The notes under the pieces were generated by a model that did no database searches, had not been told where the DNA came from, and saw nothing but the letters and a program-made list of their open reading frames with translations. The translations under genes were made by a program, and so were the position numbers. Shown one piece after another: positions 5,539 through 22,916 of a stretch of DNA of 23,789 nucleotides; position 1 is the first letter of the stretch, and each line of letters begins with the position of its first letter. Location: contig SUPR01000055.1 in NCBI GenBank assembly GCA_005191425.1, positions 1-23,789 of the forward strand. Reading direction: 5' to 3'. Origin of the DNA: Candidatus Helarchaeota ASGARD archaeon Hel_GB_B (lineage in GTDB: Archaea; Asgardarchaeota; Lokiarchaeia; Helarchaeales; HEL-GB-B).

Positions 5539-7053
5539 CTAAAAATTCAGACCATTTATTAAAAAGAATGACGTAAAATAAAATGAAATAAAGTAAATTA
5601 ATATAAAAAGCAATGAAATTGGTAAACTTTTTTGAAAATTAATTGTTTTAAATATAATTTTAGATGTAAAAAAAACCAATATTGTATTAGTTATTATGAT
5701 CGGAATTATGATTTTGTTGTCAAACAAAATGAAATTATTTTGGATAAATAATCCATTAGTTACTTGCTGAAAAAATAAACTAAAGATAGGTAATATATTA
5801 GTAAATAAGCCCATTAATATACTGAATATGCTCATCAATATTAGGACTTTAAATTGAATAGATTTTATTATTGTTTTTCTCTTTGCAATTAATTTCCTAT
5901 TAAATTCGATATTATCCAATATATTTTTTATTCGTTTTCCAGTTTCTAGCGAATTTTTAGATAACATTTTGAGTATTAATTTCAGTAATATCTTATTTTT
6001 TTGTTCTTTAAAATTATTAATTAAATTATTCCAGTATTCATTAAATTCAAAATTATTGATTTGAATAAACATTTCAGGATTTTTAAAAAAAGAAGAATTT
6101 AGTTTTAATAACTTAATAGATTTAAAAAGTGCGATCTCAGGAGAATTATTTAGGCATAAATAATTTGAGAATACGTCTAAGAAATTTAATAATAGAATTA
6201 ATTCTTTTTCTTGATTAACAGATTCTCCAAAAAAGACGAAACTTCTTTTTATAAGCGACTTTTTTAGAATAATGAGAATAAATAAATGAAATGGAATGAG
6301 AATAAGTATAAACCATGGATTAGATGCCAGATAAATAGAAAAAAGGACGATTGTAATTATTGGCAAAAAAATATTAATCGTAATTAAAATGGTGAATCTT
6401 ACCTGTAATTGTTCAGTAGTTTTTTGGTATTTGCTTAATAACTCAACCGAAAATTTAGGATTTTTATTAATTAGATCATTATTGTGTATATCAGAACTTA
6501 ATAAAGACAAAAAATTTTCCTTAAAAGTGGGATTTGCTATTATTCCAGCGAACTCAATGAGTAAATGTTCAGGCGTTTGGCCCATATTTATTTTTTTTAC
6601 TATTTCCTTAAAATAACCGGAAATGATCGGATAATCAGATTTTGAAACATATTTAATGCAGTCAAGAAGAGTACCAGATGATTTTAAGATAAGTATAAAA
6701 TCTTGATAAATCAGGTCCAAATATTGTAGAAAATTATCTTGCTGAATATGAAATTGAATAATTAAATAACCATAAATTTTTTTTGAAATAATTAAACTGA
6801 ATATTAGGCTTATTAAAATTGAAAAATAAAAGTTTATAAGGCTTAGTATAAAGAAAAAAGAAAAAAAACTAATAATAAAAGATAATATGGCGGATTTTAT
6901 AATATCATCAGAATGTAGGTCTATCACTGCTCTTTTATCATAATTATAATAGTTTACTGCTTTATTCAATTCTTCACTATAGAATTTTTTACAGAATCTA
7001 TTTAAGAGAGTGAGTTTTGCCGAAATTTTATAAAAATTTAAGATCCAATCCAT
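5539..7053 (-). CDS. Type II secretion system F-family / TadB-TadC-like pilus membrane platform protein with two T2SSF-like domains
   Basis: Pattern of TM hairpin, helical cytoplasmic domain (DFILILKSSGTLLDCIKYVSKSDYPIISGYFKEIVKKINMGQTPEHLL), TM hairpin, second domain (DVFSNYLCLNNSPEIALFKSI...ETGKRIKNIL) and three TMs. Overlaps the upstream ATPase by 16 nt; SD GAGG at 7061-7064. Confidence 0.75.
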   Translation of the reverse strand: MDWILNFYKISAKLTLLNRFCKKFYSEELNKAVNYYNYDKRAVIDLHSDDIIKSAILSFIISFFSFFFILSLINFYFSILISLIFSLIISKKIYGYLIIQFHIQQDNFLQYLDLIYQDFILILKSSGTLLDCIKYVSKSDYPIISGYFKEIVKKINMGQTPEHLLIEFAGIIANPTFKENFLSLLSSDIHNNDLINKNPKFSVELLSKYQKTTEQLQVRFTILITINIFLPIITIVLFSIYLASNPWFILILIPFHLFILIILKKSLIKRSFVFFGESVNQEKELILLLNFLDVFSNYLCLNNSPEIALFKSIKLLKLNSSFFKNPEMFIQINNFEFNEYWNNLINNFKEQKNKILLKLILKMLSKNSLETGKRIKNILDNIEFNRKLIAKRKTIIKSIQFKVLILMSIFSILMGLFTNILPIFSLFFQQVTNGLFIQNNFILFDNKIIIPIIITNTILVFFTSKIIFKTINFQKSLPISLLFILIYFISFYFTSFFLINGLNF

Positions 7054-9302
7054 TTATTATCCTCATTACTTGTTTGATTCATATAATCATTCATTAATTT
7101 TTTCAATAGACCCCAATCTTTGATCTTTTTTTTCTTATTTAATATCCAATATTTGTTAAGTATTTTGTTAAGTCTTGAATTATCAAGGATTTCATTTTCA
7201 AGCATTTTAGTTAAAATAAAGATGTAAAAGGATATTTCATTGTAGAATGAATCGAAATCAAGAGGTTCTATGTTAGAGTTTTTTATTTTATTGATTACAG
7301 GTGATTTATTGTAAATATTTTCGAGTTTATTATACAGGTTTTCTAATTTATCTGCTAATGCATTTCTTTTAAAAAAAGATATAAAGTTATAATTATTATT
7401 GTCGTCAAATTCTAATTCAGATATTTTGATTACCCTTCTTTTAATTTTATTTACATCATTAACGCGAGCAAGTTGGACAATTATATCAAGATCTTTTATA
7501 GAATTTATTGATATTTGGTCTTCAATCATCCATCGTTTCACAATTAATTCAGGCGTTTCTCCATGACTTGTACTTAGGCCAGACCTAAGTCCAACTTTTA
7601 ATAGAAAGAAAAATGCATTGACTGACGATGAATTAATTATTTCACCGAGATAAATCATATCGGGAGTTCTATGTAATGCTTCTCTCACCTGAAATTCTTT
7701 TGAAAAATTTAAATTCTCAAAATTGTTTTGTAATTTAACTGAAATTCTTATTTGATGTTGAGAGATTTCAGATTGATCAATACTTTCAATGACATCTTCT
7801 ATATACATTTTTCTCCAATGATTTGGAGTTAAAATATCCAATGAATTAATAAGAGTTGTTTTACCAGATCCCGGAGGTCCGATTACAACAATATTTCTTT
7901 TATGGTACAGGTTAAATAACAAGTATCCAGCTGCTTCAACTGAAATTGTTCCATTTTTTATTAATTCTGTCAATGAGAAATCTTTTTTGCGCATTTTTCT
8001 TATAATTAGGATATAACCATCAGTAGACAATGGATTTATTATAATTGTTGCTCTTACTTGGAAGAATTCAGTAATAATTTCTGCCTTGAGTGAAGGGTGC
8101 ATTTCGTCAAGTGGCATATTGCTCTCAATTCGTATAATAGTTATAAATCTTTTAAGTTCGTTTTCAGATAATATAATATTTGTTTTACACCTTCCAAATT
8201 CCCTATGGTCAATATAGATTTCAGTGTTCGGTCGGTCTATAAAAATTTCTTCAATCGAATCATCTATTAAAAATGGAAATAAAAATAAAAATCCAGTAGT
8301 TTTGAATGTTGCATAATAAATAAGGAATTGTTTCCATTGTGGATTTAAATGGTCAAAATTTTCGTCCAGAAATGATTTAATTAAATTTTTTCTCTGATTT
8401 AATGAATCATTTAAGTTTAGAAACTCATCACCAGAGAACCCATAATCGATAGATTTTAATTTATTTTCAATCCAATTCAATACTTTTCTAGTTTCGTCAT
8501 TTTTATAGAGAGATTCCACTTTATAAAAATTTTCAATTGAATTCGCATTTTCATAGATAATTATATGAAACGGGAATAAATTGTATTCATTTATTTGTCT
8601 TAAATGCTTTTCTGTTATATTTTCTTTATTTTCAATTTTTTTGGATACGAAAATATCGCCCAAAATCAATTTCAATGAATTATGGTCTATTTTATTTTTA
8701 ATAAGATGTTCAAATTTCAAATATTTTTTAATGAATATTGAATCATTTAAATTAATTATAGCATTTTTTAAAAAATTTAAATAGTTTTTATTACATTTTT
8801 TACATTTTTCAAGGACATTTAAGTTTTCAATTATTGTAATTTCTAATTTAAATTCCTTATAAATTTTAATTGGATTTTTAAATATGGGTATATTGATTAA
8901 ATTCTTCCCAATTGTATTTTTTACAAAATTATTTATCCTTTTTAAACAATTTTCATAATTTTCACATGAATTATTTGATAGAAAATCAGATATATTATGT
9001 TTATTCAGTTCGTTTTTTATAATTTTTATTTTTTCGGTCAAATTCTTTAAAATGTAAATATTATTTCTATCCAAAATATAATAATTAGTCCTTCTATCTA
9101 TTTTAATCTCCAGGACTTCTTCTTTTATGTCATTTAATATAGTTAAACAATGACATAAACAATTAGGATTTGAAAAAAGTGGAATTGATGGAATTAAATA
9201 ATTACAATTAATACAATCACAAGTTAGTACCTTTTGAAAAACGTCTTCTTTGCCAGACTCGCGGACTTTCGTTTCTAATATAAAATGTGCATCTAATTCC
9301 AT
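7038..9302 (-). CDS. Type IV pilus/secretion ATPase (TadA/CpaF/VirB11/FlaI family) with a Cys-rich N-terminal extension
   Basis: IEEIFID, IIRK, Walker A GPPGSGKTT (7854-7880), Asp box YIEDVIES, Walker B ALHRTPDMIYLGEI, His box STSHGET, and KRRVIKISE. Confidence 0.92.
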   Translation of the reverse strand: MELDAHFILETKVRESGKEDVFQKVLTCDCINCNYLIPSIPLFSNPNCLCHCLTILNDIKEEVLEIKIDRRTNYYILDRNNIYILKNLTEKIKIIKNELNKHNISDFLSNNSCENYENCLKRINNFVKNTIGKNLINIPIFKNPIKIYKEFKLEITIIENLNVLEKCKKCNKNYLNFLKNAIINLNDSIFIKKYLKFEHLIKNKIDHNSLKLILGDIFVSKKIENKENITEKHLRQINEYNLFPFHIIIYENANSIENFYKVESLYKNDETRKVLNWIENKLKSIDYGFSGDEFLNLNDSLNQRKNLIKSFLDENFDHLNPQWKQFLIYYATFKTTGFLFLFPFLIDDSIEEIFIDRPNTEIYIDHREFGRCKTNIILSENELKRFITIIRIESNMPLDEMHPSLKAEIITEFFQVRATIIINPLSTDGYILIIRKMRKKDFSLTELIKNGTISVEAAGYLLFNLYHKRNIVVIGPPGSGKTTLINSLDILTPNHWRKMYIEDVIESIDQSEISQHQIRISVKLQNNFENLNFSKEFQVREALHRTPDMIYLGEIINSSSVNAFFFLLKVGLRSGLSTSHGETPELIVKRWMIEDQISINSIKDLDIIVQLARVNDVNKIKRRVIKISELEFDDNNNYNFISFFKRNALADKLENLYNKLENIYNKSPVINKIKNSNIEPLDFDSFYNEISFYIFILTKMLENEILDNSRLNKILNKYWILNKKKKIKDWGLLKKLMNDYMNQTSNEDNKWIGS

Positions 9303-9472
9303 TGTTCTCTTTTAAAAAATAAAATATAAAAACCCCATCAAATATTTCTCGAGGTCTTTTTAAAATTCAAAGACGATTTTTACTCATTAAATTAAAAATA
9401 ATAAATGTATAATTTACCTGTTTTAAAGATATTTTAATATTTTATCAATTTCGATAATAATGAAATAAATAA

Positions 9473-9706
9473 TTATGAATATATAATCTCAGTCATAATT
9501 TGATAAATAATTAGAACAGATAAAATGAGACCAGCAAATATTAGAAAATTTAAAAAAATATTTGGAATATTAGATGAAATAGATATTACAAATGGTAATG
9601 TTAGAAAAAAAGGAGCGGATACAATTAATGTCGATGAAACATCTTCACAAAAAGGTAGAATTATAATTTCTGCAATCCAGATCAATAATACAATTATATA
9701 AAACAT
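9473..9706 (-). CDS. Small membrane protein (77 aa, two hydrophobic segments)
   Basis: SD GGTGA (9716-9720), formed by the last codon and stop of the upstream gene, lies 9 nt before the ATG; co-oriented with the operon. Confidence 0.55.
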   Translation of the reverse strand: MFYIIVLLIWIAEIIILPFCEDVSSTLIVSAPFFLTLPFVISISSNIPNIFLNFLIFAGLILSVLIIYQIMTEIIYS

Positions 9707-9715
9707 TTGAATATT

Positions 9716-11515
9716 TCACCTTATCTTTAAAAAACGTAATGATTTAGGTCTCTTGAATGTTTTTAAAGTTACCATCATGAAACATGCCAAAATGATGAAT
9801 GCAATGATATATCCAGAATAATAAGTTAAAAATTGGTCTAAATTTCTTTGAATATTAATATTAAATTCGAAATATATTGGTGAATAAGGATAACAATTAT
9901 TGTATAATATTTCGATTTTAAGAATACCTTGTTTTTCAGGAGTTATATAACTTATATTTATAATTCCCTGTTTATTTGTATTTAACCACCAAGATTGATT
10001 ACCTATTTTTATGAAAATTAATTTATTTACAAGATTACTGTTATTTGATAACTGGAATTGAAAGACCAAGTTAATTCGCACCGAAAGTGGATAATAAAAT
10101 TTTATATATGGAATTATTTTTGTTATTATAATTGTTCTGTCGATATTACTTGAGTTAAAAATTGAATTATTTACCAATTGGACTCTAAATCTAATTTGAG
10201 AATCATTAAAGCCAAGTGGTAATTTCCAGTTATATCTAAAATTAATTTTTGATATTTTAATGATATCAATTTTAGACCAATTGTCAAAATCAGGATTATA
10301 TTGAAATAAAAATACTGATTGGTTAACGATAGTTTTATTTGTTAATTTATCAATTAAATTAAAATAAAAATTAAATTGAATTAATGAATTTTTACTCCGA
10401 TTATGTTTAAATATTATCTGTAATGGCCTTTTTTTAATTTTAATTTCTCGTGATATTATCAATCTTTTTCCAGGTTTTATAGGTGTTGCAGATACATTAA
10501 GTAGATAAGTTCCAGATTTTTTTGGGGCTTTTAATGTTAAATTGTATTTATTTTGCTTATTTTTTGTAAAATTAGCAATTCCAAATGTAGAAACACATGT
10601 TATACTAGCATTAAATGCGCTAGTGGCAGTTAATTCTACATTAGAAAAAGTATCATTTAAGTTATAATTAGTATAGATATTATTTTTATTTAGAATAGTA
10701 AAATTAAAAGCTGTTGTGTCATTGTATATATATAATTGGAAATAAAATAAATTGTCAAAATAGTTGAACGTTTCATGAACGTATATAGTTAATTTAATAT
10801 CGCCACACCCAATATTACTTGTGTCTAATGATGTATTAACAATTCCATTATTATCAGTCGTGGCGTTTGAATTAATCTGAGCAGTGGTCCGAAGATTTTC
10901 TAATTTGAAAAAGATTAATTTATTGTTATATTTGAAAGTATAATTATTATGATTGAAAAATTCGAAAACTACTCGAGTATTATCAGACGAAAAAATAGTT
11001 TCAGGATATTGTGAAATAAATATACAATCAACAAAAGCTTTAGTAAAAATGAGTATTTCATCAGATTTTTTAATAATATCCGCATAATTCCATGGATTTT
11101 GAATTTCTGAAATTCTAATCTCCAAAAACCCATAATAGTCTAAGGAAGTATTAATATCATTTGGATTGAAATAAAATTTATCAGAGATTTTTACATTTGC
11201 ACCTTGAATTTTTGGCTCATTTTTACAAAGACGTTTATCAGCGTTAATTATCCCAAGATAAATTGAATCTACAGTCCATCCTTCATTAAGGAGTAATTTA
11301 TAGCTTGCATTTATAATGATACTTTTTCCAACTTCTACCTCAGTTTTTTCAAGAGTAACATTAAAAATTTTCACATCACCAAATGGAAGGTCTGTTTTAG
11401 TTATAACGCGCGAGTTGGATGATTTGAAAGGAGAATATAATGATATTGTTGGAAAAATGATATAACCTATAAAAAATAACAAAATAAACAATAAGAAAAC
11501 TTTTAATTTTTTCAT
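9716..11515 (-). CDS. Large membrane-anchored surface protein, beta-rich (Ig-like repeats probable), likely N-glycosylated
   Basis: N-terminal signal/TM (KKLKVFLLFILLFFIGYIIF), C-terminal TM (YSGYIIAFIILACFMMVTL) plus basic tail, TTDNNGIV/TNKQGII Ig-type motifs, about 23 N-x-S/T sequons by hand count. Confidence 0.75.
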   Translation of the reverse strand: MKKLKVFLLFILLFFIGYIIFPTISLYSPFKSSNSRVITKTDLPFGDVKIFNVTLEKTEVEVGKSIIINASYKLLLNEGWTVDSIYLGIINADKRLCKNEPKIQGANVKISDKFYFNPNDINTSLDYYGFLEIRISEIQNPWNYADIIKKSDEILIFTKAFVDCIFISQYPETIFSSDNTRVVFEFFNHNNYTFKYNNKLIFFKLENLRTTAQINSNATTDNNGIVNTSLDTSNIGCGDIKLTIYVHETFNYFDNLFYFQLYIYNDTTAFNFTILNKNNIYTNYNLNDTFSNVELTATSAFNASITCVSTFGIANFTKNKQNKYNLTLKAPKKSGTYLLNVSATPIKPGKRLIISREIKIKKRPLQIIFKHNRSKNSLIQFNFYFNLIDKLTNKTIVNQSVFLFQYNPDFDNWSKIDIIKISKINFRYNWKLPLGFNDSQIRFRVQLVNNSIFNSSNIDRTIIITKIIPYIKFYYPLSVRINLVFQFQLSNNSNLVNKLIFIKIGNQSWWLNTNKQGIINISYITPEKQGILKIEILYNNCYPYSPIYFEFNINIQRNLDQFLTYYSGYIIAFIILACFMMVTLKTFKRPKSLRFLKIR

Positions 11516-11564
11516 AAATATTCCCTTACAATAATATGTAAATATAAAAAAAAATTTAGATTGA

Positions 11565-12128
11565 CTATTGCATTTTAATATTATCTAAAAGTTGTAAAAA
11601 AGATTCATGTATATTATACCCTTCAGTAGCAATAGTTTTAAATATATGTACTTTATTTCCTATGCGGAAATATTTTTTTAATTCGTTTTCAGTTATCAGA
11701 TTAGATTGGTCTTGTAAATCCCATTTATTTAGACAAAAGATTATTGGAATTTTACTGATTTTATTTCCTAATAGCTGTTGTAATTCATTCCAGCTCTCAA
11801 TATTTTCTTGAATTAAATTTTTTTGAGAATCGACAACAAAAATAATTCCATCAGTTCCATTTAATACCGTTGGGCGAGTTTCTGCATAAAAGTTCTGCCC
11901 TGTAGAGCTCCATATATTAATTTGTATTTTCCAATTTCCTTTATTAAAAGTAAGTTCTCCAAAGTCGAAAAATAATGTCCGACCAGCTCCAGTTTCGATT
12001 GATTTCAGATAATCTAACCGATTGTAATGTTTGAAAAGATATCGAACTGATGTAGATTTTCCTGACATAGCAGGGCCCCACCAAACTAATTTAAACATTA
12101 TTAAATGTTTTCCATAATCTATAATCAT
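11565..12128 (-). CDS. mglA: MglA-like small GTPase (Ras/Arf superfamily)
   Basis: G1 GPAMSGKST, G2 region ETGAGRTLFFDF (MglA-type RTLFFDF), G3 WSSTGQ, DGIIFVVDSQ, G4 NKWD, G5 TIATEG; SD GGTGA at 12136-12140. Confidence 0.85.
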   Translation of the reverse strand: MIIDYGKHLIMFKLVWWGPAMSGKSTSVRYLFKHYNRLDYLKSIETGAGRTLFFDFGELTFNKGNWKIQINIWSSTGQNFYAETRPTVLNGTDGIIFVVDSQKNLIQENIESWNELQQLLGNKISKIPIIFCLNKWDLQDQSNLITENELKKYFRIGNKVHIFKTIATEGYNIHESFLQLLDNIKMQ

Positions 12129-12202
12129 TTATTACTCACCATATTCTAATAAAAAGGGAATTATTAATCCTTTATTTAATTTATATTTCAAGAATTTCAT
12201 TT

Positions 12203-13111
12203 TTAACCCCATTTTGATTCAATCCTATCTCCAATATCGATTTTTAGTCCAGTACCGATACATTTGGAAAAATCTATTCCATATTCATATAAAAGAAATT
12301 CTAATAACCGTTTGTGTCCAACTTCTTGATAATCAATAGTCTTAAATAATGTTTTATCGGAAATTTGAATATTAAAGCCTAATTCCTGTAATAGTTCTAT
12401 ACGAGATAAAATTGCTAAAGCCCTATTTGCAGCTTGAACGAATTCGTCGATTTTTTGCTTATATATATTTTGTCGGATTTTCTCCTCTTCTGTATCGAAA
12501 GTCATTACCGCTTCAATAATTCCGGAAGACTTATGAGCCTTAATTTTTTTCTGTAGGACGCGTTTCATTTTTTCAAGAGCAATTTCTGTTTCAACTATAG
12601 CCTTTTGGATCAGATTTTTTTCAAAATCATAATTTTTACCATTCCATTTATAATTTGACTCTAAAATTTCGATTTTATCATTATTTAAATATAAAATAAC
12701 AGGTGTTTCTATAACTTGATTGATTTGGTTTATTGCCTCTCGTAAAATAATTTTGTTTTTTAATGAAAAACCTAAAACCCAACCATTGAAATGTTTAGAA
12801 CTTATTTTTCGTAATGCATGAGGTGTAGCATTAGTTGGAGATCTAACAATAAGCCTAGGAACATTGAAGTCAGATTCTTCTGTCTGATATAATTGAACAA
12901 TTTCATTTTCTTCAATAAAATCATTCCAATATATTAATTCATTTCTATGAGGCATAAGCTGTATTAAACTATTAACAATTTTATCAACTTGTATTGATTC
13001 ATCTCCGATAATTACAAGCGGTATTCTGTTAAATAATGCCCGCAAAACTTTTGAAAAATTTTCTTTTCCTATCATTTCAATTAAATTTTTCATTGAATAA
13101 CTTGATTCCAT
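12203..13111 (-). CDS. Hypothetical protein with DENN-core-like (cDENN/dDENN) sequence pattern
   Basis: GKENFSKVLRALFNRIPLVIIGDESIQVDKIVNSLIQLMPHR resembles the helix-strand-helix-P start of cDENN; later GWVLGF and PVILYLNNDKI strands and a helical C-terminus. Starts directly after the upstream stop; SD GGTGA at 13119-13123. The CDS is secure, the family call is tentative. Confidence 0.5.
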   Translation of the reverse strand: MESSYSMKNLIEMIGKENFSKVLRALFNRIPLVIIGDESIQVDKIVNSLIQLMPHRNELIYWNDFIEENEIVQLYQTEESDFNVPRLIVRSPTNATPHALRKISSKHFNGWVLGFSLKNKIILREAINQINQVIETPVILYLNNDKIEILESNYKWNGKNYDFEKNLIQKAIVETEIALEKMKRVLQKKIKAHKSSGIIEAVMTFDTEEEKIRQNIYKQKIDEFVQAANRALAILSRIELLQELGFNIQISDKTLFKTIDYQEVGHKRLLEFLLYEYGIDFSKCIGTGLKIDIGDRIESKWG

Positions 13112-14113
13112 TTATGAATCACCAATTTTAAGCCCATCAAAAATATTATTTAAATTTAATATCGGCGGCTCAAGCTTTTGTGATTGTACAAGTAATTCCG
13201 ATAGAATTTTGACATATTGGGGAATTAAAAGCCGTAATAATCCCAATCGTTTTTGACCTCTGGAAATATATGTACTAAAAATCCCCATTTCACATCCATA
13301 TATAAAATGAGAATATCCTTCGCAATCTATTAGGACATTATTGATAGGAGTTTGCTTTAAAGTAGTAATAATTCTTTTACTAGTATCATAGAGAGTATAA
13401 CTTAAAGCACCTTCGCTTTGAGTATTTGTAGAATCTAAATTAATATTTAATAAAGGATATCCACCATTTAATGATATACTTGCCATTTTTACTCCTGGAA
13501 CAGTTTTTGAAAATTCAAAGATACAGTCTCGAATTTTATTGGATATTTCCTCACTTAAATTAATATTAACACTTGAATAAGAGTCGGAACAGCTATTATC
13601 TTCTTTAACATTAAAACTTTCAAGAATCTTTTTTAACTCGTCCTTATCATAAGATCTTAGCGGTGGTTTAAAATTAGCTCCAGAATTTTCAATTGCCATT
13701 GTAAGTGCATTCAAAGTATCCTTCATTGATAACATTATAGCCCCTAAATTAACCTTTAACCGTGCAGTGATTGTTAAAAAATATTCGGCTTTATTTACCG
13801 AATTATATATTTTATCTAATTTAGTGTGAATAGGTGCAATTAATATTTTTGCTCTCTCACCGTCAATTAACAAATATTTTAATGTTTCAGGGTGTAATTG
13901 CTCTGCAACGTTGAAAATTGCACTAACAATAGAACAGACACCAAATATTTCATTTTTTGAAAGCCAAACACCAGCAGATTCTATAGGCTGACCGTCTCTC
14001 TGCGTAAGGACAACATTTTCTACACCGGTAATAGATTTAATCTGTCTTAAATTAAACTTAATTTGCCTGAGTGTTTCTTCCATCATTTTAACCTCGAAAT
14101 TCTCAAAAATCAT
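13112..14113 (-). CDS. Tandem roadblock/LC7 (MglB-like) domain protein
   Basis: Domain 1 IKSITGVENVVLTQRDGQPI...LLIDGERAKILI...VNLGAI; domain 2 SKTVPGVKMASISLNGGYPL...VLIDCEGYSHFI...KRLGLLRL; joined by a linker of about 45 aa. Confidence 0.85.
   Translation of the reverse strand: MIFENFEVKMMEETLRQIKFNLRQIKSITGVENVVLTQRDGQPIESAGVWLSKNEIFGVCSIVSAIFNVAEQLHPETLKYLLIDGERAKILIAPIHTKLDKIYNSVNKAEYFLTITARLKVNLGAIMLSMKDTLNALTMAIENSGANFKPPLRSYDKDELKKILESFNVKEDNSCSDSYSSVNINLSEEISNKIRDCIFEFSKTVPGVKMASISLNGGYPLLNINLDSTNTQSEGALSYTLYDTSKRIITTLKQTPINNVLIDCEGYSHFIYGCEMGIFSTYISRGQKRLGLLRLLIPQYVKILSELLVQSQKLEPPILNLNNIFDGLKIGDS
13119..13123 (-). promoter_or_regulatory. Shine-Dalgarno GGTGA inside the last codons of the tandem-roadblock gene (translational coupling)
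   Basis: Minus strand reads GGT GAT TCA TAA ATG: the stop is followed immediately by the next start, with a 7-nt SD spacing. Confidence 0.7.
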
Positions 14114-14321: not shown

Positions 14322-14627
14322 CTAAATATTTTCCCAGACTTCAATCATTTTTTTTATTGCTTTAACTCTATAATCTTCAATTCTAATTCTGTAAATTCTT
14401 ATTCGTCCATAAATTTTTTCTTGTAAAATCCCTGCTTCTACCAAGAATTGTAAATGCTTTAATGTAGATTTATGATTTAATTTACATCTCTCTACTATTT
14501 CACTAATATTGAGCTCTTCTTCTTTTACTAGAATTTTTATTATCTTTACCCTCCCTTTAGATGCAAAAACATCTTCAATTTTATATTGAAAATTTATTTT
14601 TCTTTCTAATGACATCATTTTCATCAT
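14322..14627 (-). CDS. ArsR/SmtB-like winged-helix transcription regulator
   Basis: FASKGRVKIIKILVKEEELNISEIVERCKLNHKSTLKHLQFLVEAGILQEKIYGRIRIYRI is a typical ArsR-type wHTH. Confidence 0.85.
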   Translation of the reverse strand: MMKMMSLERKINFQYKIEDVFASKGRVKIIKILVKEEELNISEIVERCKLNHKSTLKHLQFLVEAGILQEKIYGRIRIYRIRIEDYRVKAIKKMIEVWENI

Positions 14628-14984
14628 CTTTTATTTAATCGTATTATTTATCTATCAAAAAGAATTTAAATACTAAAAGAGAGACCTTCTCAAATTTGAA
14701 AATTTTTAAAAAACATTATTTTACCTTAAAAAAATTATTTTTTCAAAATGATTTCTTTTTTAAATTTATGAGATAACTTTTTTTAACCGATAAAAATATT
14801 TGTAAATATTATTTATAATCAAACCTAAGAGATATGCAATATAATTAGTTGTTAACCATAAATTATAATAATTATATTCTATTGCAGAATATTATTTTAT
14901 TCAATTTCATATAAATTCTGTGGTCTTTTATCTAATAAAATTAGTTGAGTTTAAATAGTTTTAATTATAATTAAATTGATCAAA

Positions 14985-15185
14985 ATGACAAGTATAAAGA
15001 AAAATACGATTTTTAAATTGATCATTAAAGATAGGAAAGGATCACCAGTTGTTGAGGAGGCACTTTTGATCGGAATTGCGATAGTTGGAATTTTAATATT
15101 TCTTGGTGTGATATTTGGACTTTTTGATTGGATCAATGATGCTCTTACATCATTGTTTAATAATTTTAGTCTTTCGTTGGTCTAA
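14985..15185 (+). CDS. Minimal Flp-like type IV pilin with class III signal peptide
   Basis: Basic leader ending DRKG, predicted cleavage G|S (after 15041), Glu at +5 (SPVVE), then a hydrophobic helix; mature peptide 47 aa. ATG 14985 or TTG 14976 start. Confidence 0.85.
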   Translation: MTSIKKNTIFKLIIKDRKGSPVVEEALLIGIAIVGILIFLGVIFGLFDWINDALTSLFNNFSLSLV

Positions 15186-15315: not shown

Positions 15316-15696
15316 TTATAGATTTTTTATTATTATTTTCTCTAATTTATTTACTTGTCTTCTGAAATAACGCATTTTAATTGGGACTATTGAAATTAAT
15401 AAAAATTGCTGGTTTTTTTTATCACAACTAATTTTTCTGATAATGATTTTTTCATTTTGTTGTATATAATTTAAGATTATTTCATCAGGTGGAAGGTAAC
15501 CATAGTTATGGTCATTTATCATAGATGCTGCCATAGCTGCAATTGTTTCACAATTATAAATCGTTTCATATCCAAATGTATCGATGATTAATAATCCTTC
15601 TTCTGAACATAAAATACAGCCAATGACTTCAGATTCGTCAACTATAGATTGTAAAGTATATTGCACCTGATTAACATTAAAATTAACAATTCTCAT
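15316..15696 (-). CDS. Roadblock/LC7 domain protein (MglB-like)
   Basis: LQSIVDESEVIGCILCSEEGLLII...ETIAAMAASM...EIILNY...KIIIRKI...LLISIV. ATG 15696 preferred over GTG 15705 because GAGTGA (15702-15707, minus) fits as its SD. Confidence 0.85.
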   Translation of the reverse strand: MRIVNFNVNQVQYTLQSIVDESEVIGCILCSEEGLLIIDTFGYETIYNCETIAAMAASMINDHNYGYLPPDEIILNYIQQNEKIIIRKISCDKKNQQFLLISIVPIKMRYFRRQVNKLEKIIIKNL

Positions 15697-15916
15697 TATT
15701 TTCACTCGATTGCCAATATTAGTATAAATTCACAATTTTTTCAAAAAAATTATTTATAAGCTCAACTATTAGAATTTAGAAATAAAGGGGAAATAATATA
15801 ATTGTAATAAGGGAAATTGGTCATAAATTGAAAAAATATGACTTTTTATACTCTTTTTTAAAATTAAAAATAAAATTAGATTTGAACACTAAAAAAAGAA
15901 TTTAATAGGTGAAATA

Positions 15917-17464
15917 ATGAAAAGTTATGATTTTCTGTTTTTAATTTCTCCTCAAAAACCGCAAATAAGACCTTTTGATGTATTTTACCCATTTTCATAT
16001 CAAATTGAAACGAAAAAAACAATTCTACCACTTCAATATGGTGTAATGTCGTTATTAGGTTCCTTAAAGGATGAATTTGAAATTGGATATTATGATTTAG
16101 CACATTTTAAAAGCATGACCAAGAGTTCATTAAAAGAAACAGTGGATACATTACTAAAAAAATATAATCCAAGAGTGGTAGGACTTCAATCATATACATT
16201 TAACTTTAATGGACTAAAAGAAACAGTAAAATATATTAAAGAATTTAATAAAGACATTATTACTGTTGCAGGAGGACAACATGTATCATTTCTTGACACG
16301 CAATCTATTAAAGAATGTAATGGAAATTTGGACATAGTAGTTCGGGGCGAGGGTGAAAAAATCATTACAGAATTATTACAAAAATTAATTAAAAACAGAC
16401 CAATAAAAGATGTTAAAGGAATAACTACAGATAAATTTAGGAATCCAGATGCACCTTTAATGTCAGAAGAAGAATTAAACAAATTGCCACTTCCTGCATT
16501 TGAACTTATTCCAACCTCCGAAAAAAATGGCCAATATATTTATTTTCCCATTAGTGTTTCAAGAGGGTGTGTATATAAGTGTCTATTTTGCGTTAATCAC
16601 CAATTCTGGAGAAAATGCGTCCGAATAATGGACTCTACACCGGCAATTAATATATTAAAATATTTTATTGAAATTTTTGGAACCCGAAAAATTATGTTAG
16701 AATTCTGCGATTCGATATTACCAATAAATATAAAAAAATTCAAAGATTTAGTCGATAAATATACAACTGAAATAAATTTTCCAGTATTGTTTGCATTAAC
16801 AAGAGCAAATTTAACTGATGATACCAGATTAGAACTTCTATCGAAATTATTACAAGGAATTGGCGTCCTTTCAATAGGGATCGAAAATGGTAATGCAGAA
16901 GTCTTAAAACTTATGCATAAACCAACTTTTGAAACGTCCGTTAAAGCACTTATCAATATTAGGTCTCATAACCTAAAAGCAACTCCGTCTTGGCTTGTAG
17001 GTCATCCAGGGGAATCATTAAAAACAATGAATGAAAATTTAGAAAAAATAGAATATTTATTTAATAAAAAATTAATTGATACATTAATTCCGTTTATATG
17101 GATCCCATTACCTGGAACTCCTCCTTTTGATGAACCTGAAAAATATTTTGTGAAAATTATAACTTATGATTGGGACAGATATGACAGAGCAATTTTTTTA
17201 CCGCCATATCATTTGTTAGAAAAGGAGAACCCTAAAAGGATTGCACTAAGTAATTTACAAATTTGGTCTTATTATCTAAATGTAATTTCATTATGTAATA
17301 AAAACAGCCAGAATTTTAAACTGAAAAGCAGGAAAAAACAAGTACCATTATCTGAATTTCTAAAAATTGTCAATAATGATTACTATTATACTCGATTTAG
17401 TCCGGGAAAAGATGCAGATCTAAATTATTATAGAGATCTTGATGCATTTGTAGCACTAGCATAA
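15917..17464 (+). CDS. Cobalamin-binding radical SAM protein (class B methyltransferase/BchE-like superfamily)
   Basis: B12-binding region PRVVGLQSYTF...TVAGGQHVS...DIVVRGEGE; radical SAM motif SRGCVYKCLFC (Cys codons 16568-16591); SIGIENG, LVGHPGES; SD AGGTGA at 15907-15912. Confidence 0.92.
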   Translation: MKSYDFLFLISPQKPQIRPFDVFYPFSYQIETKKTILPLQYGVMSLLGSLKDEFEIGYYDLAHFKSMTKSSLKETVDTLLKKYNPRVVGLQSYTFNFNGLKETVKYIKEFNKDIITVAGGQHVSFLDTQSIKECNGNLDIVVRGEGEKIITELLQKLIKNRPIKDVKGITTDKFRNPDAPLMSEEELNKLPLPAFELIPTSEKNGQYIYFPISVSRGCVYKCLFCVNHQFWRKCVRIMDSTPAINILKYFIEIFGTRKIMLEFCDSILPINIKKFKDLVDKYTTEINFPVLFALTRANLTDDTRLELLSKLLQGIGVLSIGIENGNAEVLKLMHKPTFETSVKALINIRSHNLKATPSWLVGHPGESLKTMNENLEKIEYLFNKKLIDTLIPFIWIPLPGTPPFDEPEKYFVKIITYDWDRYDRAIFLPPYHLLEKENPKRIALSNLQIWSYYLNVISLCNKNSQNFKLKSRKKQVPLSEFLKIVNNDYYYTRFSPGKDADLNYYRDLDAFVALA

Positions 17465-17475
17465 CAATTTTTTAT

Positions 17476-20400
17476 TTACATTTGTCTTCTAAGATTCCTA
17501 ATCCAAGGGTCGATATCGCTCCAATCAAATCTTAAAACTTCAACCTTATCGGTTATTCCCCAATTATTTAACTTTTTTTCAATATTATTTTTTAATTCTA
17601 TCGAATATATAATAATAATTTGAGTGAAATTGGGATTTTTTGTCAGACCTGTTATTAGTCGTTCTTTTAAGTTTGCTAAATCGCTGGTATCATAGATAAT
17701 ATTAATATAAATTGAATGTTTAGGTAAAGAAATATCAAAAAATGATATATTATTACTAAATTGACCTTTTGATTCTAAAATTTTATTGGGAATATCATTG
17801 TCATTAAAAATTTTTATTAAATTATTTTTTATTATGGCTTTTCCATTAATAATATCCCGCCACCCATAATAAATATGAGTAACATTTGTTGGTTCATCGA
17901 AATCATGAACTCTAATTTCTTTAACATATCTCCTTATTGGATTTAAATTATTCATAATATCGTTAATATCACAACCTAAATATTCTGAAACTTCAATTTC
18001 TGTAGGAAAATCAGATCCGAATCTAATTAATAATTCAGTAGGAAACAAATTATTAAATTTAGATAGTATATCACTAAGAAATTTATTATAATCTTGCTTA
18101 ATATTGGACTTAAATGAATTATTTTTATGATTTTCCATATTTTTTATTGATGGTGTAGTAATTTTTTTATTTGGAAAATTATTTGAATTATGGTCATCTT
18201 TTATTTCGTTAATTTCACCAAATTGTATAAATTGTCTAAATTTATTCCAGTCAAATTTATTAAAAGCAAATACATGGACTGTATCAATGTTCCATTCATT
18301 AAACCATTTAAGAATTTTATTTTTCCATTGAGAATAAGGGATAATTAAAATAATATCTAACATATTATTCGTATAAGCTTCAATAATTAAATCGGAAATT
18401 ATTTTTGAAAATTCTTTTTCGTCCAAACTTTTATAATTTTTGACATAGATCTTAATATAGATATTTTGAGAAAACATTATATAATCAAATAGTTTATTAT
18501 CAGTATAGCCAAAAGTTCCAGGTCGGACGAAGTCAATTTCTATTTTTGCTTTTATTATATTTATTAATTCAGAAATTGGATCATTTAGTGAATATATCTT
18601 CTGTAATTTTCCATTAGAAAAAACTGGAAAGATGGAACTTTTAAAAGTGCCATTAGAGATCGGCTGAGTTAAAAGTGGTTCAACCTGTTCTAATCCTATA
18701 TTTAAAGATTTTGCGATTTCAAATTTATTTCTAGGCCCATTTTTCAATATTTCACTGATTTTTTCGATATAATTTTCGATCTCCAATTCAATATTTTGCT
18801 CAAAATTATTATGTAGTTTATTACTAGAGTTTTTATAAAGATCTGGAAATACTTTTTTATTATTCATGATTATTTCTTGATCACTGCATTTTTGAAAATA
18901 AACATTTTCAGATTTTATTCTAAACGGGTACTGAAACCCAGGAATTGTAATAATGGCTTCTTGTTTAGGCATTATTTTTAGATATTCTTCTTGTTCTTGG
19001 TTCAAGTTTTGATAATTAGCAATTTTTTTTGAATCATAAGGACTTTTAAAACTAACTTTTATTCCAGAATTACTGATAATATCCGGGCTAATTTCAGGTC
19101 TTGTTGCAATAGTAATCATACTTTCTCCTACACCTCTTAACAATAAAGGAATATCTTCACCCATGCTAGTTTCAGGCACCTCCCGTAAGACTGCGGGGAC
19201 TAATAATTGGGCGTCTTCAATTATCACTATATGATTTAATTCATTTGAAATTCCTCTTTGTAATGCTTTATCGATAACATATTTTAAAACAAGGTTCATA
19301 AGGAACCTAACATCTTGTTTAGTCCCACCTTTGCTTAATAAATAATTAAAATCAAATATTACCTTTTTATTTACAATAGTATTAAAATCTATATTCGAAT
19401 TTTTGACATCAAAGACTTTTTTTAGATTTCCGCTACGAAATCTTTCAAACCTATTTATTAGGGCATTAACGGTCATTGAAATTGTCCTATTATTAATTTT
19501 TTCTCGTTCTTGATAATCTTTTAATGCTTCAAAAAAAGCTTCTAATGAACGTTTATTTTCATTAGTAGTGACTTCATAAATGACATCTCTACAAACACGT
19601 TCCATCTGGACGGATAGTTCTGGTTTATTTTGAAAGTCTGATTTAAATAGCTCAATAACTAGTGCAAATAATTTTCTAGCATGTTCTTCAGAATTTGCAT
19701 TTTCAGGATTGAACATATTAATTTGAAATGGTACTTCGTCAGTCCCGGGTCTTAATATTAGAATTTCGCCTGGAGCTTCTTTTATTAATGCAGCATAATC
19801 ACCTTTCCAGTCTAGGACAAGCCAATTTATATTTGAATAATATTTATTCAATTTTTTTAATATATTCATAACAAGGCTTGTTTTACCCATTCCAATTAAA
19901 CCAGTAATAAACATATTTAAACGCAAATCTTCGATATCAATTCCTACATTAAATAATTCTTTATTATCTTGAAATAGAATTGTCCCAATTGTAATTTTTT
20001 CATTAACAAGATCTTCAGTAGGAATTTCAAATAAAGGAATATTTGATCGTTCAATGGAAGGAAAAGATTCTTCTGGGAGATGGAGATATGTAGCAAGTTG
20101 TCCACTAGTCATTATTATTCGTTGGCCAATTGACTGTCTGTTTATTATCAATGATAAGCAATATATTAATCTACTCTTCTTTACAAATTCAGTTTCTATA
20201 GAGTTCTCATTTCCGCTAAAAACAGTGTCCAGAATAGCCGTAATTTTTTTTGATTCATTTTCAATTTGGTCTTCATTAAGAGACCTTAAAACAATATATG
20301 CGGATATTTTCCAGATAGCTGTAATCTCTGAATGACGTAAACTCAATAAATTTTCTCTTATAGATGTATTATTTTTATTGATATTGATAGGTTGAAAATT

Positions 20401-21603
20401 ATTAGAAAAAGATTGATATGGAAATTGATTATCTTGAAATTTAAAAATATTTACAGGAGTTAAATGGACAACAAAATTACACCCATAAACATTGCTACTT
20501 AATATACTAGAAATAAAGCTATCAATCTGCGTTCTTTTTAAGTATGCTTTAACTTGTGGTCTATTTTTTATTTTTATAATTTTTAGAAAAATATCCTTCT
20601 CTAGCTGTGAAATTTTCAAGATATTGTTTTTTAGAGTTTTGATATTATAATCGCCAATACCACCAAATATCTCAGACCAAGCATTTCTAAGTTTATTACC
20701 ATAAAGAATCTCAAAACTTAGACCAGGAAAAGATGTTTCATAAATTCTTGAGATAATTTCCAGTATATTTTTTAATTCAGTAATTAGTTCATTCTTATTT
20801 TTTCCTATAAAAGTCAGAATTATTCTAAATCGCACCCTATTTTTATGAATTGAAATTTCATAAGATAATTCAGGGACGTAATTTAATAATACAGTTAAAT
20901 GATAATGAAAATAGACCTGTTGATCCCCAAAAGTAATCCTTTCAATATTTTTTTTCATTATTCTATTTTCTCTGCTTGATATATTCCGGGGAATATTTTT
21001 AATTTCAAGGATTGAAACTCCACGGATCCTTCTATGTTGCCTTCCAAATATAATTGCATGAGAATTAATTTCAAAATTAAAAAGTTTATATTTAAATTTT
21101 CCAAATTTATAATAAGATTTTATAAGAAGGATTAAAATTACTAAAATCCAAGCACCGAAAAATACAAAAATTTTTAATATCCATTGGAAAAGTCCGGATA
21201 TAAAGATTATTACACCGTAGATAAGATTATTTGAAATCACATTATAGTAGGAGGACACAAAAACAGCAAGAATTGGAGTACCTAAGAAAAATAATATTAT
21301 TTCAAAGATCAGATATTTATTATCATTTATTTCCTTTTTTGTTTTAAAATATTCTATTACTGAAATTATAATAAAAATAATAGAAATATAGAAGATAATA
21401 TCTACTAATGTAAAAACTGGATTAATTATATTTTGTATAAATGATATATAAGTAGTATCATATTTTGAAGTAATAAATAAAAAAGAATAAAATAAAATTC
21501 TATCAAATATCAATATGACAAGAGAAAATGTTAATATCCTTTGCCAAGTTGGCTTCTTTGACTCTTTTTTTCTATAATGAGAATAATAAAATTTTTTTTT
21601 CAT
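17476..21603 (-). CDS. Membrane-anchored HerA/VirB4/VirD4-like (DUF87-type) P-loop ATPase with duplicated C-terminal modules
   Basis: About 4 N-terminal TMs; NMFITGLIGMGKT Walker A (19879-19902), LVLDWKGDY, Walker B variant HIVIIEDAQ (19207-19233), ITIATRPEI; C-terminal internal repeat. Confidence 0.85.
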   Translation of the reverse strand: MKKKFYYSHYRKKESKKPTWQRILTFSLVILIFDRILFYSFLFITSKYDTTYISFIQNIINPVFTLVDIIFYISIIFIIISVIEYFKTKKEINDNKYLIFEIILFFLGTPILAVFVSSYYNVISNNLIYGVIIFISGLFQWILKIFVFFGAWILVILILLIKSYYKFGKFKYKLFNFEINSHAIIFGRQHRRIRGVSILEIKNIPRNISSRENRIMKKNIERITFGDQQVYFHYHLTVLLNYVPELSYEISIHKNRVRFRIILTFIGKNKNELITELKNILEIISRIYETSFPGLSFEILYGNKLRNAWSEIFGGIGDYNIKTLKNNILKISQLEKDIFLKIIKIKNRPQVKAYLKRTQIDSFISSILSSNVYGCNFVVHLTPVNIFKFQDNQFPYQSFSNNFQPININKNNTSIRENLLSLRHSEITAIWKISAYIVLRSLNEDQIENESKKITAILDTVFSGNENSIETEFVKKSRLIYCLSLIINRQSIGQRIIMTSGQLATYLHLPEESFPSIERSNIPLFEIPTEDLVNEKITIGTILFQDNKELFNVGIDIEDLRLNMFITGLIGMGKTSLVMNILKKLNKYYSNINWLVLDWKGDYAALIKEAPGEILILRPGTDEVPFQINMFNPENANSEEHARKLFALVIELFKSDFQNKPELSVQMERVCRDVIYEVTTNENKRSLEAFFEALKDYQEREKINNRTISMTVNALINRFERFRSGNLKKVFDVKNSNIDFNTIVNKKVIFDFNYLLSKGGTKQDVRFLMNLVLKYVIDKALQRGISNELNHIVIIEDAQLLVPAVLREVPETSMGEDIPLLLRGVGESMITIATRPEISPDIISNSGIKVSFKSPYDSKKIANYQNLNQEQEEYLKIMPKQEAIITIPGFQYPFRIKSENVYFQKCSDQEIIMNNKKVFPDLYKNSSNKLHNNFEQNIELEIENYIEKISEILKNGPRNKFEIAKSLNIGLEQVEPLLTQPISNGTFKSSIFPVFSNGKLQKIYSLNDPISELINIIKAKIEIDFVRPGTFGYTDNKLFDYIMFSQNIYIKIYVKNYKSLDEKEFSKIISDLIIEAYTNNMLDIILIIPYSQWKNKILKWFNEWNIDTVHVFAFNKFDWNKFRQFIQFGEINEIKDDHNSNNFPNKKITTPSIKNMENHKNNSFKSNIKQDYNKFLSDILSKFNNLFPTELLIRFGSDFPTEIEVSEYLGCDINDIMNNLNPIRRYVKEIRVHDFDEPTNVTHIYYGWRDIINGKAIIKNNLIKIFNDNDIPNKILESKGQFSNNISFFDISLPKHSIYINIIYDTSDLANLKERLITGLTKNPNFTQIIIIYSIELKNNIEKKLNNWGITDKVEVLRFDWSDIDPWIRNLRRQM

Positions 21604-21881
21604 CGATATCGCTAATTATTCCAAAAGAACATATTTAAACTCAAATTGCGAATTTTAAAGTCTTTAATTAAACTTAAAATCCAAAATGAATTAAAGATAG
21701 TTTAACATAATTGAACTCAATTATTTTATTATGTCACTAATTTAATGGAAATCAATTACATTTTTACGCCAAATAAAACAAGTCCAATTAGTTATTTTTT
21801 TTTATATATAAATAATGCGTTTAAAAATTCAAAAAAATTGAATTAATACTATTAAAAAATAATATTTATTGAACTTGTTCA

Positions 21882-22916
21882 CTAATTTTCAATGTAATTT
21901 TTTAGAAACGATGTTTTTATAACTTTAAAATGGTCTCGGATTGAATATTCTGCACATTTACATGCGTTAGATAAGATTTTTTGAGTTAAAATAGCTTTTC
22001 GTTTCTTATACTTAGCTAAGATCTGGTCGCTGGTGTAAATAATAGCCACAGCAAAAATATAAGGGTTTCTACCACCTCGTTGTTGAAGCCCAAAATTCTT
22101 TAGTATTTCAAAACTTTTGTTTAATAAATATAACCGATATTCATTAACATCTTCGTCAATTTTTAGTAATCTATTTATTACTTCGCTATAATTACAGACT
22201 TTAGATACTATTCGATTAACATAGTCCTCACTTTTTCGAGTATTGGATTTAATGAAATCTCCGGTATAGATACTTACTTTTTGTATCTCCCTTAAAATAG
22301 TTCGTGGAGAAACACGGTGGCCAAGTTCTCTAAATATTTGACATAATTCCTGAATAGTGATTGGCGCTTTATTCTTATATTCTCTAATTGCTAAAAAAAT
22401 ACACATAGCAATTAAAATTATATGGTTTGTAATTTCTTCTTTTGGCACTGAAGAAATGATTTTATTGTAAAAATATGCAGCACGGTCTTTTATATTATCA
22501 TTTAATTTTAAATGATTAACGACACGATTTAATAAATTAAATACATTATAATTAGTTTCCTGGTTAACATATCTTGACCTGACATCATAAAAATATTTTA
22601 AACGTTTAAATAATGTTTGCTTTTTTGCTTTTAATGGTCTTCCAGATGCATCGGTAAATTTTGTACTATATTGATAGTCCATAAAACTTCCTAGCCCATC
22701 TACCATATTTAATCGCTTACCTAATGCAACAAAATGTCTAGATGAATTAAATTTATTTGAATGGTCAATGTTCATTTGATATGTTGGTGAAACTAGTTGT
22801 TTTTCAATGACCAGTCCACATAAAGAACAGATATATTCACCTCTTACTTCGTCTAATATAGGTTCATGCTTACAATCAGTTAAAATTTTTGAATATTCAC
22901 TTTTCGTTATAATCAC
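21882..22916 (-). CDS. tfb: Transcription initiation factor IIB paralog
   Basis: Zn ribbon CKH...RGEYICSLCGLV, GLGSFM linker, two cyclin repeats (AAYFYNK..IAMCIFLAIR..PITIQEL; GRNPYIFAVAIIY..LTQKILSNACKCAEYSIRDHFK); GTG start. Confidence 0.9.
   Translation of the reverse strand: MIITKSEYSKILTDCKHEPILDEVRGEYICSLCGLVIEKQLVSPTYQMNIDHSNKFNSSRHFVALGKRLNMVDGLGSFMDYQYSTKFTDASGRPLKAKKQTLFKRLKYFYDVRSRYVNQETNYNVFNLLNRVVNHLKLNDNIKDRAAYFYNKIISSVPKEEITNHIILIAMCIFLAIREYKNKAPITIQELCQIFRELGHRVSPRTILREIQKVSIYTGDFIKSNTRKSEDYVNRIVSKVCNYSEVINRLLKIDEDVNEYRLYLLNKSFEILKNFGLQQRGGRNPYIFAVAIIYTSDQILAKYKKRKAILTQKILSNACKCAEYSIRDHFKVIKTSFLKNYIEN

Follow-up and report, generated by a model that had tools for sequence, protein, structure and literature searches.

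A three-gene module of roadblock, DENN and small GTPase genes is already known from Asgard archaea: Liu et al. (2020/21; 10.1101/2020.10.19.343400, Fig. 5b) predicted an operon of Roadblock (LAMTOR1-like), small GTPase and DENN genes in most of these organisms, called the GTPase Rab-like and read the module as a folliculin (FLCN)-like exchange factor; their main text uses neither “pili” nor “pilus”. MglA-like proteins form a small group among the Asgard GTPases, whose genes generally lie outside operons with roadblock genes (Tran et al., 2024), and this general lack of operons shared with regulators makes the matching of the two difficult (PMC10933270). In Myxococcus, MglA/MglB and SofG set the polarity of type IV pili (PMC7668184, PMC4316618). 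Archaeal Epd and bacterial Tad (Flp) pilus systems have been classified (Denise et al., 2019; PMC13705601), and a 2026 survey of archaeal type IV filaments, which makes no mention of a GTPase, roadblock protein, TFB or HerA, describes an ordered filament locus as rare in Asgard genomes (PMC13705601). Here we describe a locus of the Asgard archaeon Candidatus Helarchaeota Hel_GB_B in which the roadblock-DENN-GTPase trio stands inside an array of type IV filament genes. The window, by which we mean the whole stretch of DNA analysed, is an entire 23.8-kb contig (SUPR01000055.1, here C135) of a 3.5-Mb metagenome-assembled genome (MAG) of about 25% GC; DNA identical to it is present in hydrothermal-vent and marine-sediment metagenomes.

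The open reading frame (ORF) map holds 13 genes in 5539-22916, 11 of them on the minus strand, just as a preliminary description of this DNA had counted them. The gene identifications offered there, including a DENN-like protein and an MglA-like GTPase, hold under structure and profile searches, the platform protein and one roadblock protein (g10) being probable only. The description had also stated that no characterised system with this combination was known, a statement that needs a caveat for the trio, published by Liu et al.; a link between trio and pilus was not found in the literature searched. What was observed is confirmed, and what was made of it, a surface or DNA-exchange machine under the control of a small GTPase, is partly supported. 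What is new here is that in this genus the trio lies within a tight eight-gene pilus array that has been duplicated whole, with a divergent TFB near each copy.

Filament genes, the array and its divergent TFB

By its gene content the locus is predicted to be a type IV filament system of the Tad/Epd-like kind. The putative assembly ATPase (g02, 754 residues, 7038..9302, minus strand) matches T2SSE above the Pfam cut-off (1.9e-15) as well as models of FlaI (8.9e-27), TadA (7e-23) and VirB11 (6e-21); it has a Walker A motif, GPPGSGKT, at residue 475 and a Cys-rich N-terminal extension of about 330 residues with Cys clusters at 28-52, 113-119 and 167-170. The adjacent gene, which shares 16 nt at its start with the end of the ATPase gene, encodes a probable polytopic platform protein of the TadC/ArlJ-like type (g01, 504 residues, 5539..7053, minus strand) with six predicted transmembrane (TM) segments. 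T2SSF is the sole Pfam family to match the g01 family, in four of six orthologs and at best with 2.5e-4, a signal that fits the 16-nt overlap with the ATPase gene; the family profile searched against PDB gave noise only.

The candidate filament subunit is a minimal Flp/Epd-like prepilin of 69 residues (g09, 14976..15185, plus strand), which matches no Pfam family and shows the class III signal motif DRKG/SPVVEE, the stroke marking the predicted cut, followed by one hydrophobic TM helix. Pilins of 61-75 residues with the same motif are encoded beside the ATPase gene in G137, G142, G303, L042, L049 and in families f21 and f26 (among the families labelled here, f5 is a Loki family, f31 is Thor-type, and f1, f3, f6, f19, f9, f21 and f26 are further ones). 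The one prepilin peptidase of the genome, a member of the Peptidase_A24 family, is encoded on contig C79 and scores above the cut-off (33.1 bits); in f5 such a gene is found inside the pilus operon (1.4e-7). Between ATPase and trio lie a small membrane protein gene (g03, 77 residues with about three TM segments in a hydropathy scan, 9473..9706, minus strand), which is kept beside the ATPase in C131, G126, L034 and f26, and the gene for a type-I surface protein, a candidate adhesin or anchor (g04, 599 residues, 9716..11515, minus strand). The latter has an N-terminal signal or TM segment, a C-terminal TM segment, 23 N-x-S/T sequons for N-glycosylation and a weak MG4/Ig-like match (4.4e-5); its position is the same in both paralogous loci of the genome and in L035.

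All of these but the pilin and the peptidase belong to an eight-gene, one-direction array that opens with ArsR and runs through the trio (double roadblock, DENN-like, GTPase) to the surface protein, the small membrane protein, the ATPase and, last, the platform; the gaps between genes are -16 to 208 nt. The identical eight-gene order is repeated on contig C131, at 37-71% identity to the window copy; another divergent TFB follows this repeat at about 2 kb downstream, and both copies of the array are found in the sister species G126. The genome has only two T2SSE ATPase genes (tblastn, 1e-5), one per trio copy. No end overlap was found between contigs C131 and C140, whose abutment would place the second copy of the VirB4/HerA-like gene (below) beside the second TFB.

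The TFB paralog in the window (g13, 344 residues, 21882..22916, minus strand) has a TFIIB Zn-ribbon (1.8e-6) and scores 63.7 bits against NF001658, whose cut-off is 384; the genome also encodes two canonical TFBs at 478 and 498 bits. Residues 5-334 of g13 align to positions 9-303 of the 312-position TFB model; since this alignment spans nearly the entire model, the protein is predicted to be full length, and not a truncation of the TFB3 kind. TFB3 of Sulfolobus is a truncated TFB without the core cyclin domains. Orthologs of the divergent TFB stand out at 1e-58 to 1e-72 (1e-11 or worse for other TFBs), and one is found about 3.5 kb downstream of the trio start in 55 of the 80 named loci. More widely, the divergent TFB lies 0.5-4 kb from trio or ATPase in f1, f3, f5, f6, f19 and the Odin-type genome, directly beside the ATPase in the latter two. 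It is also found in f9 and f21, 0.5-1.6 kb from a full-length ATPase ortholog; because these families have no DENN match, the pairing of pilus and TFB appears to be older than the trio's association with them and independent of it. The matches of ATPase, pilin and TFB support the earlier proposal of a type IV filament system with a divergent, locus-linked TFB paralog.

The regulator that opens the array (g08, 101 residues, 14322..14627, minus strand) is a predicted ArsR-type winged helix-turn-helix protein (HTH_5, 1.8e-7). The pilus operons of f5, f6 and the Odin-type genome contain its orthologs, paired there with an Orc1/Cdc6-like gene. This AAA+ gene, of about 400 codons, is found for example at L057:4862-6070 of G142 (Cdc6_C, 1.5e-10); the pairing with ArsR is also seen in G303, L038 and L039 and on C131, just upstream of ArsR, and the gene is missing from the window copy. 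The window likewise lacks a further small GTPase, extended at its N-terminus (217-296 residues; L145:257-1147 on C131, L036, L038, L039), which in f6 and the C131 locus recurs between the TFB and either the trio or the platform gene.

The roadblock-DENN-GTPase trio and its place in the phylum

The small GTPase (g05, 187 residues, 11565..12128, minus strand) was compared with proteins of solved structure by phmmer. The MglA structures match at 2.6e-23 (3t12) to 3.9e-22, and the best Rab, Rab11, at 1.8e-10, so that the MglA match is 13 orders of magnitude better than that of any Rab. Its switch I, RTLFFDF, is identical to that of MglA, its G3 motif reads SSTGQ where MglA has TVPGQ, and its G4 motif is NKWD. 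By these matches and motifs the protein is clearly an MglA-type GTPase, predicted to have a G3 without the canonical Asp and an intrinsic Arg in switch I.

The roadblock gene (g07, 333 residues, 13112..14113, minus strand), whose stop codon abuts the start of the DENN-like gene with a gap of 0 nt, is predicted to encode two roadblock domains in one chain and to be MglB/LAMTOR-like. The N-terminal half matches Robl_LC7 (1.5e-7), and in PDB the roadblock proteins 9jue_D (2e-6) and 7f8m_A (3e-4) align with profile positions 178-297. A further gene outside the array (g10, 129 residues, 15316..15705, minus strand) probably encodes a single roadblock fold: its profile matches only roadblock proteins in PDB, in register and at best with an E-value of 0.034, its look-alike clusters fall to Robl_LC7/LAMTOR3 at 0.93-0.94, and orthologs were found in f1 and f3 only. 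Pairwise hhalign comparison of the two g07 halves, and of g10 with them, gave weak in-register signals only. Of the three roadblock domains in two genes announced in the preliminary description, the two in g07 are borne out, and the third is probable.

The DENN-like protein (g06, 302 residues, 12203..13111, minus strand) was modelled with AlphaFold2 (mean pLDDT 87). Its closest fold match (VIA) is folliculin 343-558, with a Z-score of 12.8 and a root-mean-square deviation of 3.8 over 190 aligned residues of model residues 1-279, followed by DENND10 (Z 11.2) and SMCR8 (Z 10.7) and joined by C9orf72 and DENND1A; Foldseek matched DENND11 at 7e-5. The model thus points to a cDENN plus dDENN-like fold. 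No longin (uDENN) domain was found in g06: the DENN alignments cover central and C-terminal parts of those proteins only and start at the first residues of g06, which leaves no room for one. A caveat to the DENN match is that residues 1-155 also resemble the P-loop domains of secretion ATPases (Z about 10). This N-terminal alpha/beta half matches GspE, HP0525, PilB, FlaI and CpaF, but has no Walker A motif; the likeness hints at a relation of cDENN to P-loop domains, which is intriguing given the adjacent ATPase gene.

Of 20 sampled loci, 19 keep the trio intact in its order; it is usually present as a single copy, and 230 of the phylum's 400 genomes have the DENN family. In more than 50 genomes from seven families, trio and pilus ATPase could be placed on a single contig, and in all of these they are 3-26 kb apart. 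Measured from DENN to ATPase, the distance is about 3 kb in f1. For f3 the values are 4 and 23 kb; ten f19 genomes have 5.0-5.2 kb, at least 16 f6 genomes 5-12 kb, the closed 1.42-Mb Odin-type genome 10 kb, and three closed f5 genomes (4.3-6.0 Mb) 12-15 kb. In f31 it is 23-26 kb in fourteen genomes and 6-11 kb in three. The pilus ATPase is usually single copy in these genomes of 1.4-6 Mb, and the chance of a single-copy gene falling within 15 kb is about 0.5-2% per genome, with kin not independent; the clustering exceeds chance by far. From family to family the local arrangement varies, which argues against one inherited layout.

The linkage that had been claimed from the window was not refuted by a check for unlinked orthologs in related genomes. 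In the Lokiarchaeia-class families the pilus ATPase, the TFB paralog and the VirB4/HerA-like ATPase (g12, below) are all near the trio; in the Odin-type genome and f19 the pilus ATPase and TFB are, and in Thor-type f31 the pilus ATPase lies at 6-26 kb with no other linked component. Co-occurrence of the modules, also expected in that description, is widespread but not strict, given the pilus and TFB of the trio-less f9 and f21. In f21, as in f26, platform and pilin genes accompany the ATPase.

Housekeeping genes share this neighbourhood. The 36-kb region of f5 also holds thermosome, Tsr3, YchF, a MiaB-like enzyme, S17e and a 16S rRNA gene, and S17e recurs near the locus in f3, f5, f6, f9 and the Odin-type genome. 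In the closed genome G142 a complete 16S rRNA gene, together with a tRNA gene (L056:9434-10928), lies about 640 bp upstream of the f5 trio; conserved proline-rich “small ORFs” in that place were discarded as spurious frames inside the 16S rRNA gene. Most f6 MAG contigs start 0.4-2 kb upstream of the trio, which suggests that assemblies break at the rRNA gene. The operon is also carried by MAGs labelled Nanopelagicaceae bacterium, Patescibacteria and Bathyarchaeota (L075, L089, L109, L140), suggesting mislabelled or contaminated bins.

The membrane-anchored ATPase, RNA libraries and flanking genes

The largest gene of the window (g12, 1375 residues, 17476..21603, minus strand) lies 3.4 kb from the end of the trio and about 8 kb from the pilus ATPase. 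Its product has four to five N-terminal TM segments, an anchor kept in all orthologs, and a Walker A motif at residue 568. The AlphaFold2 model of its core is closest to VirB4 (Z 30.8), DndH-C (30.6), HerA (26.8) and TrwB (24.6), and an ortholog matches DUF87 (9.6e-11); the full-length protein found no match in PDB by phmmer. The model places g12 in the VirB4/HerA fold class, which includes CedB-like ATPases, a statement of fold class and not of CedB orthology. The canonical HerA-NurA repair helicase differs from it: no HAS-barrel or NurA match was found in the window, and the N-terminus of g12 is predicted to span the membrane. Membership in a defence system was considered and not adopted, PADLOC having given weak, generic HerA/mad8 and radical-SAM matches only.

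Orthologs of g12 lie 4-8 kb from the trio in f3, f5, f6 and f19; the closed Odin-type and f31 genomes gave no match, and none was found beside the pilus genes of f9, f21 and f26. In f5 a YchF-type GTPase gene and tRNA and 16S rRNA genes separate the g12 ortholog from the trio, and a thermosome gene adjoins it. In the closed f31 genome G319 a canonical HerA-NurA pair and CTP synthase are directly downstream of the trio (L060:4141-6821); Lokiarchaeia have the membrane VirB4/HerA-like gene a few kb from the trio where Thor-type genomes have this pair. Next to g12 in the window is a gene for a B12-binding radical SAM enzyme (g11, 515 residues, 15917..17464, plus strand; B12-binding 2.4e-14, Radical_SAM 7.9e-14 in Pfam). 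A paralogous g11/g12 pair is duplicated separately, on C140, and the pairing was unseen outside f1; a part for g11 in the system is doubtful.

Four metatranscriptomic runs, all of one study, contain the region in the cultured relative G137, whose genome is closed (locus L062); for the DNA of the window itself no RNA data set is listed, which tells neither for nor against expression. In two runs an RNA-library contig spans all three trio genes and a small downstream ORF (416/423 to 3292/3309), and other contigs cover the TFB-to-S17e stretch, the large surface protein, the pilin-Orc1-like-ArsR stretch and the ATPase. The bin that holds the pilin has a very high word depth, contig depth being a poor measure of expression. 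Elsewhere in this locus, an intergenic spot between a 92-residue membrane ORF and a 392-residue ORF (L062:3271-3924) reaches a word depth of 5e4 to 2e5 in the four runs, with many loose ends; it has no Rfam match and represents a repeat or else an abundant RNA that is not annotated.

A mobile-element origin of the locus is unlikely: GC is even at 21-30% and the chromosomal context is kept phylum-wide. A PHROGs search with six window proteins gave no match. Directly downstream of the platform gene, 4759-5418 encodes a polytopic membrane protein of 219 residues without a Pfam family, with homologs encoded close to the trio in L034, L040 and G303; a copy of 65% identity is at C56:19410-20060, on a contig that also has a 90% identical copy of the pilin. 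Upstream of the locus, at 530-2344 of the window, there is a 604-residue ORF with no Pfam match and no paralog in the genome.

The proposed switch, its alternatives and known systems

From gene content and family knowledge, the class III signal peptidase encoded on C79 would cleave the 69-residue prepilin behind its KG, and a hexamer of the ATPase with the polytopic platform would polymerise the pilin into a thin Flp-like filament, for which the glycosylated g04 and small g03 may be anchor or adhesin. By inference or analogy, the divergent TFB and the ArsR regulator would switch the locus on, and the GTP form of the MglA-type GTPase would license or position the assembly machine, the tandem roadblock protein serving as an MglB-like platform with GTPase-activating protein (GAP) function and the DENN-like protein as exchange factor or co-regulator; the membrane VirB4/HerA-like ATPase would be a linked but separate module. 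The trio thus probably gates the assembly or the position of the pilus machine, if bacterial MglA control is a guide, and its proximity to pilus genes across the phylum suggests that the GTPase switch controls the pilus. We consider the case evenly balanced for the reading as a whole, namely that the window encodes a pilus system of the Tad/Epd-like kind and a divergent TFB that travels with the pilus phylum-wide, that this lineage brought the trio into the array, and that the trio gates the machine. That an MglA GTPase, a roadblock GAP and a longin-less DENN exchange factor might directly gate where or when the type IV filament machine assembles in Asgard archaea is a tentative idea that we rate as rather unlikely. 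If true, it would mean that the roadblock/DENN regulation of GTPases known from eukaryotic endomembranes first positioned an archaeal surface machine, and that the Asgard switch is mechanistically related to bacterial pilus control by MglA and is read out by a pilus-dedicated TFB.

Several observations weigh against this account. Within the window, the platform assignment of g01 is probable and sits below the Pfam threshold (25.2 bits), and the prepilin peptidase is absent. The pilus ATPase family is found in 320 of the 400 genomes and the trio in 230; f9 and f21 carry pilus and TFB without the trio, and f26 has pilus genes without it and with no TFB match in the stretch examined. In f31 the trio is flanked by CTP synthase, canonical HerA-NurA, an HD hydrolase and a GPN GTPase, with a tRNA methyltransferase and a deacetylase among its other neighbours and the ATPase mostly some 24 kb off, and no ATPase match was found in one closed f31 genome, which is 86% complete as judged from marker genes. 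In several classes S17e and the 16S rRNA gene are neighbours conserved to the same degree, so that the linkage may in part be decaying ancestral gene order, and proximity by itself is no proof of wiring. The RNA data are assembled contigs from one study, which carry no transcript boundaries or levels and may include DNA carry-over.

The main alternative is that the trio is a general Asgard membrane or polarity switch, for example FLCN/Ragulator-like as proposed by Liu et al., with no specific tie to the pilus. Its nearness to pilus and TFB would then be inherited order from an ancestral 16S rRNA/S17e region, in which S17e and the 16S rRNA gene are conserved passengers, and the compact array a secondary rearrangement. 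The wide occurrence of the trio, usually as a single copy with its own tight three-gene order, its purely housekeeping neighbours in f31, the existence of pilus and TFB without it, and a published reading of the operon without pili (10.1101/2020.10.19.343400) all favour such a switch. However, gene order beyond operons normally decays fast, and yet linkage within 26 kb survives across several classes in differing arrangements; in f1, moreover, the trio lies between ArsR and the pilus structural genes with short gaps, in an array kept in two diverged copies, which is unexpected for a general switch. We regard this explanation as a serious possibility, if a doubtful one. The cell-contact DNA-exchange machine proposed in the preliminary description now appears improbable; in the form weighed here, a Ups-like pilus would join cells, g12 would move DNA in a Ced-like manner and the TFB would be a stress-inducible activator of the TFB3 kind. 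The part that stood is the membrane-anchored VirB4/HerA-like ATPase, its sole support, with a core closest to VirB4, DndH, HerA and TrwB and a place 4-8 kb from the trio in four families; a TFB paralog is indeed linked, but it is full length and unlike the truncated TFB3. Against DNA exchange, too, are the housekeeping genes between g12 ortholog and trio in f5, the lack of a g12 ortholog in the Odin-type and f31 closed genomes and by the pilus genes of f9, f21 and f26, and the further roles of VirB4/HerA-fold ATPases in defence and protein transport, the PADLOC matches being weak; no CedA-like partner was recognised in the window, no search having been aimed at CedA.

Minimal Flp/Epd-type pilins form true pili in bacteria and methanogens, and the very high word depth of the pilin bin is typical of a major filament subunit, even if contig depth measures this poorly; both tell against a short pseudopilus or bindosome-like surface device, built by the ATPase, platform and pilin, that would display or secrete the adjacent glycoprotein. 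Such a device is highly improbable in our estimate, although a large surface protein gene always precedes or accompanies pilin and ATPase (g04 here, 587-1963 residues in f5) and the pilin is minimal, without a head domain. The imaging published for cultured Asgard archaea, which PMC13716822 cites, likewise stresses surface proteins and protrusions, not pili.

A pilus machine under the trio's control would bear on more than this locus. To our knowledge, Asgard archaea have many eukaryote-like GTPases and regulators of which almost none has an assigned target, and the locus offers one such module a concrete candidate effector, the pilus machine. The idea is open to test in cultured relatives, whose RNA libraries contain the genes; Asgard cell adhesion and surface motility are now studied experimentally (PMC13716822), which makes a regulated adhesive filament a timely candidate. 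The statement that ordered type IV filament loci are rare in Asgard archaea (PMC13705601) is qualified by the present one, which is ordered and has a divergent TFB of its own; the arCOG-based models of that survey may have missed it.

Compared with known systems, the trio of the window has the same three-gene make-up and wide Asgard conservation as the operon of Liu et al., with which we equate it by gene families; it differs in that its GTPase is of MglA type, its roadblock protein a tandem double one, and its position in or near a type IV filament locus. With MglA-MglB of Myxococcus and Thermus (PDB 3t12, 3t1q) it has in common the MglA GTPase with the Arg in RTLFFDF and the Asp-less G3, the roadblock-fold partner and the genetic association with a type IV filament machine. 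MglB is a homodimer, whereas the roadblock partner in the window would be a fused pseudo-heterodimer; a DENN-like protein is added where bacteria use RomR/RomX, SgmX and similar proteins, and the filament is archaeal and Tad/Epd-like, in contrast to the bacterial type IVa pilus under MglA. Epd and Tad systems themselves differ from the window in its Cys-rich ATPase extension of about 330 residues and in its accessory genes, which comprise the large glycoprotein, the dedicated TFB and the GTPase trio and, at this kind of locus, an ArsR and Orc1/Cdc6-like pair. The Sulfolobales Ups/Ced/TFB3 system likewise combines a type IV pilus, a membrane ATPase of the VirB4/HerA family and a TFB paralog; the TFB of the window is, however, full length, the g12-type ATPase is not linked in every lineage and, unlike for Ups/Ced, we know of no link to ultraviolet light or DNA damage. 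Folliculin-FNIP, C9orf72-SMCR8 and DENND proteins with Ragulator share with the trio the cDENN and dDENN fold (Z 10-13), roadblock partners and a small GTPase; by comparison with these eukaryotic longin-DENN regulators, g06 has no uDENN and in its N-terminal half also resembles secretion-ATPase P-loop domains, and the GTPase beside it is of MglA type, not Rag, Rab or Arf.

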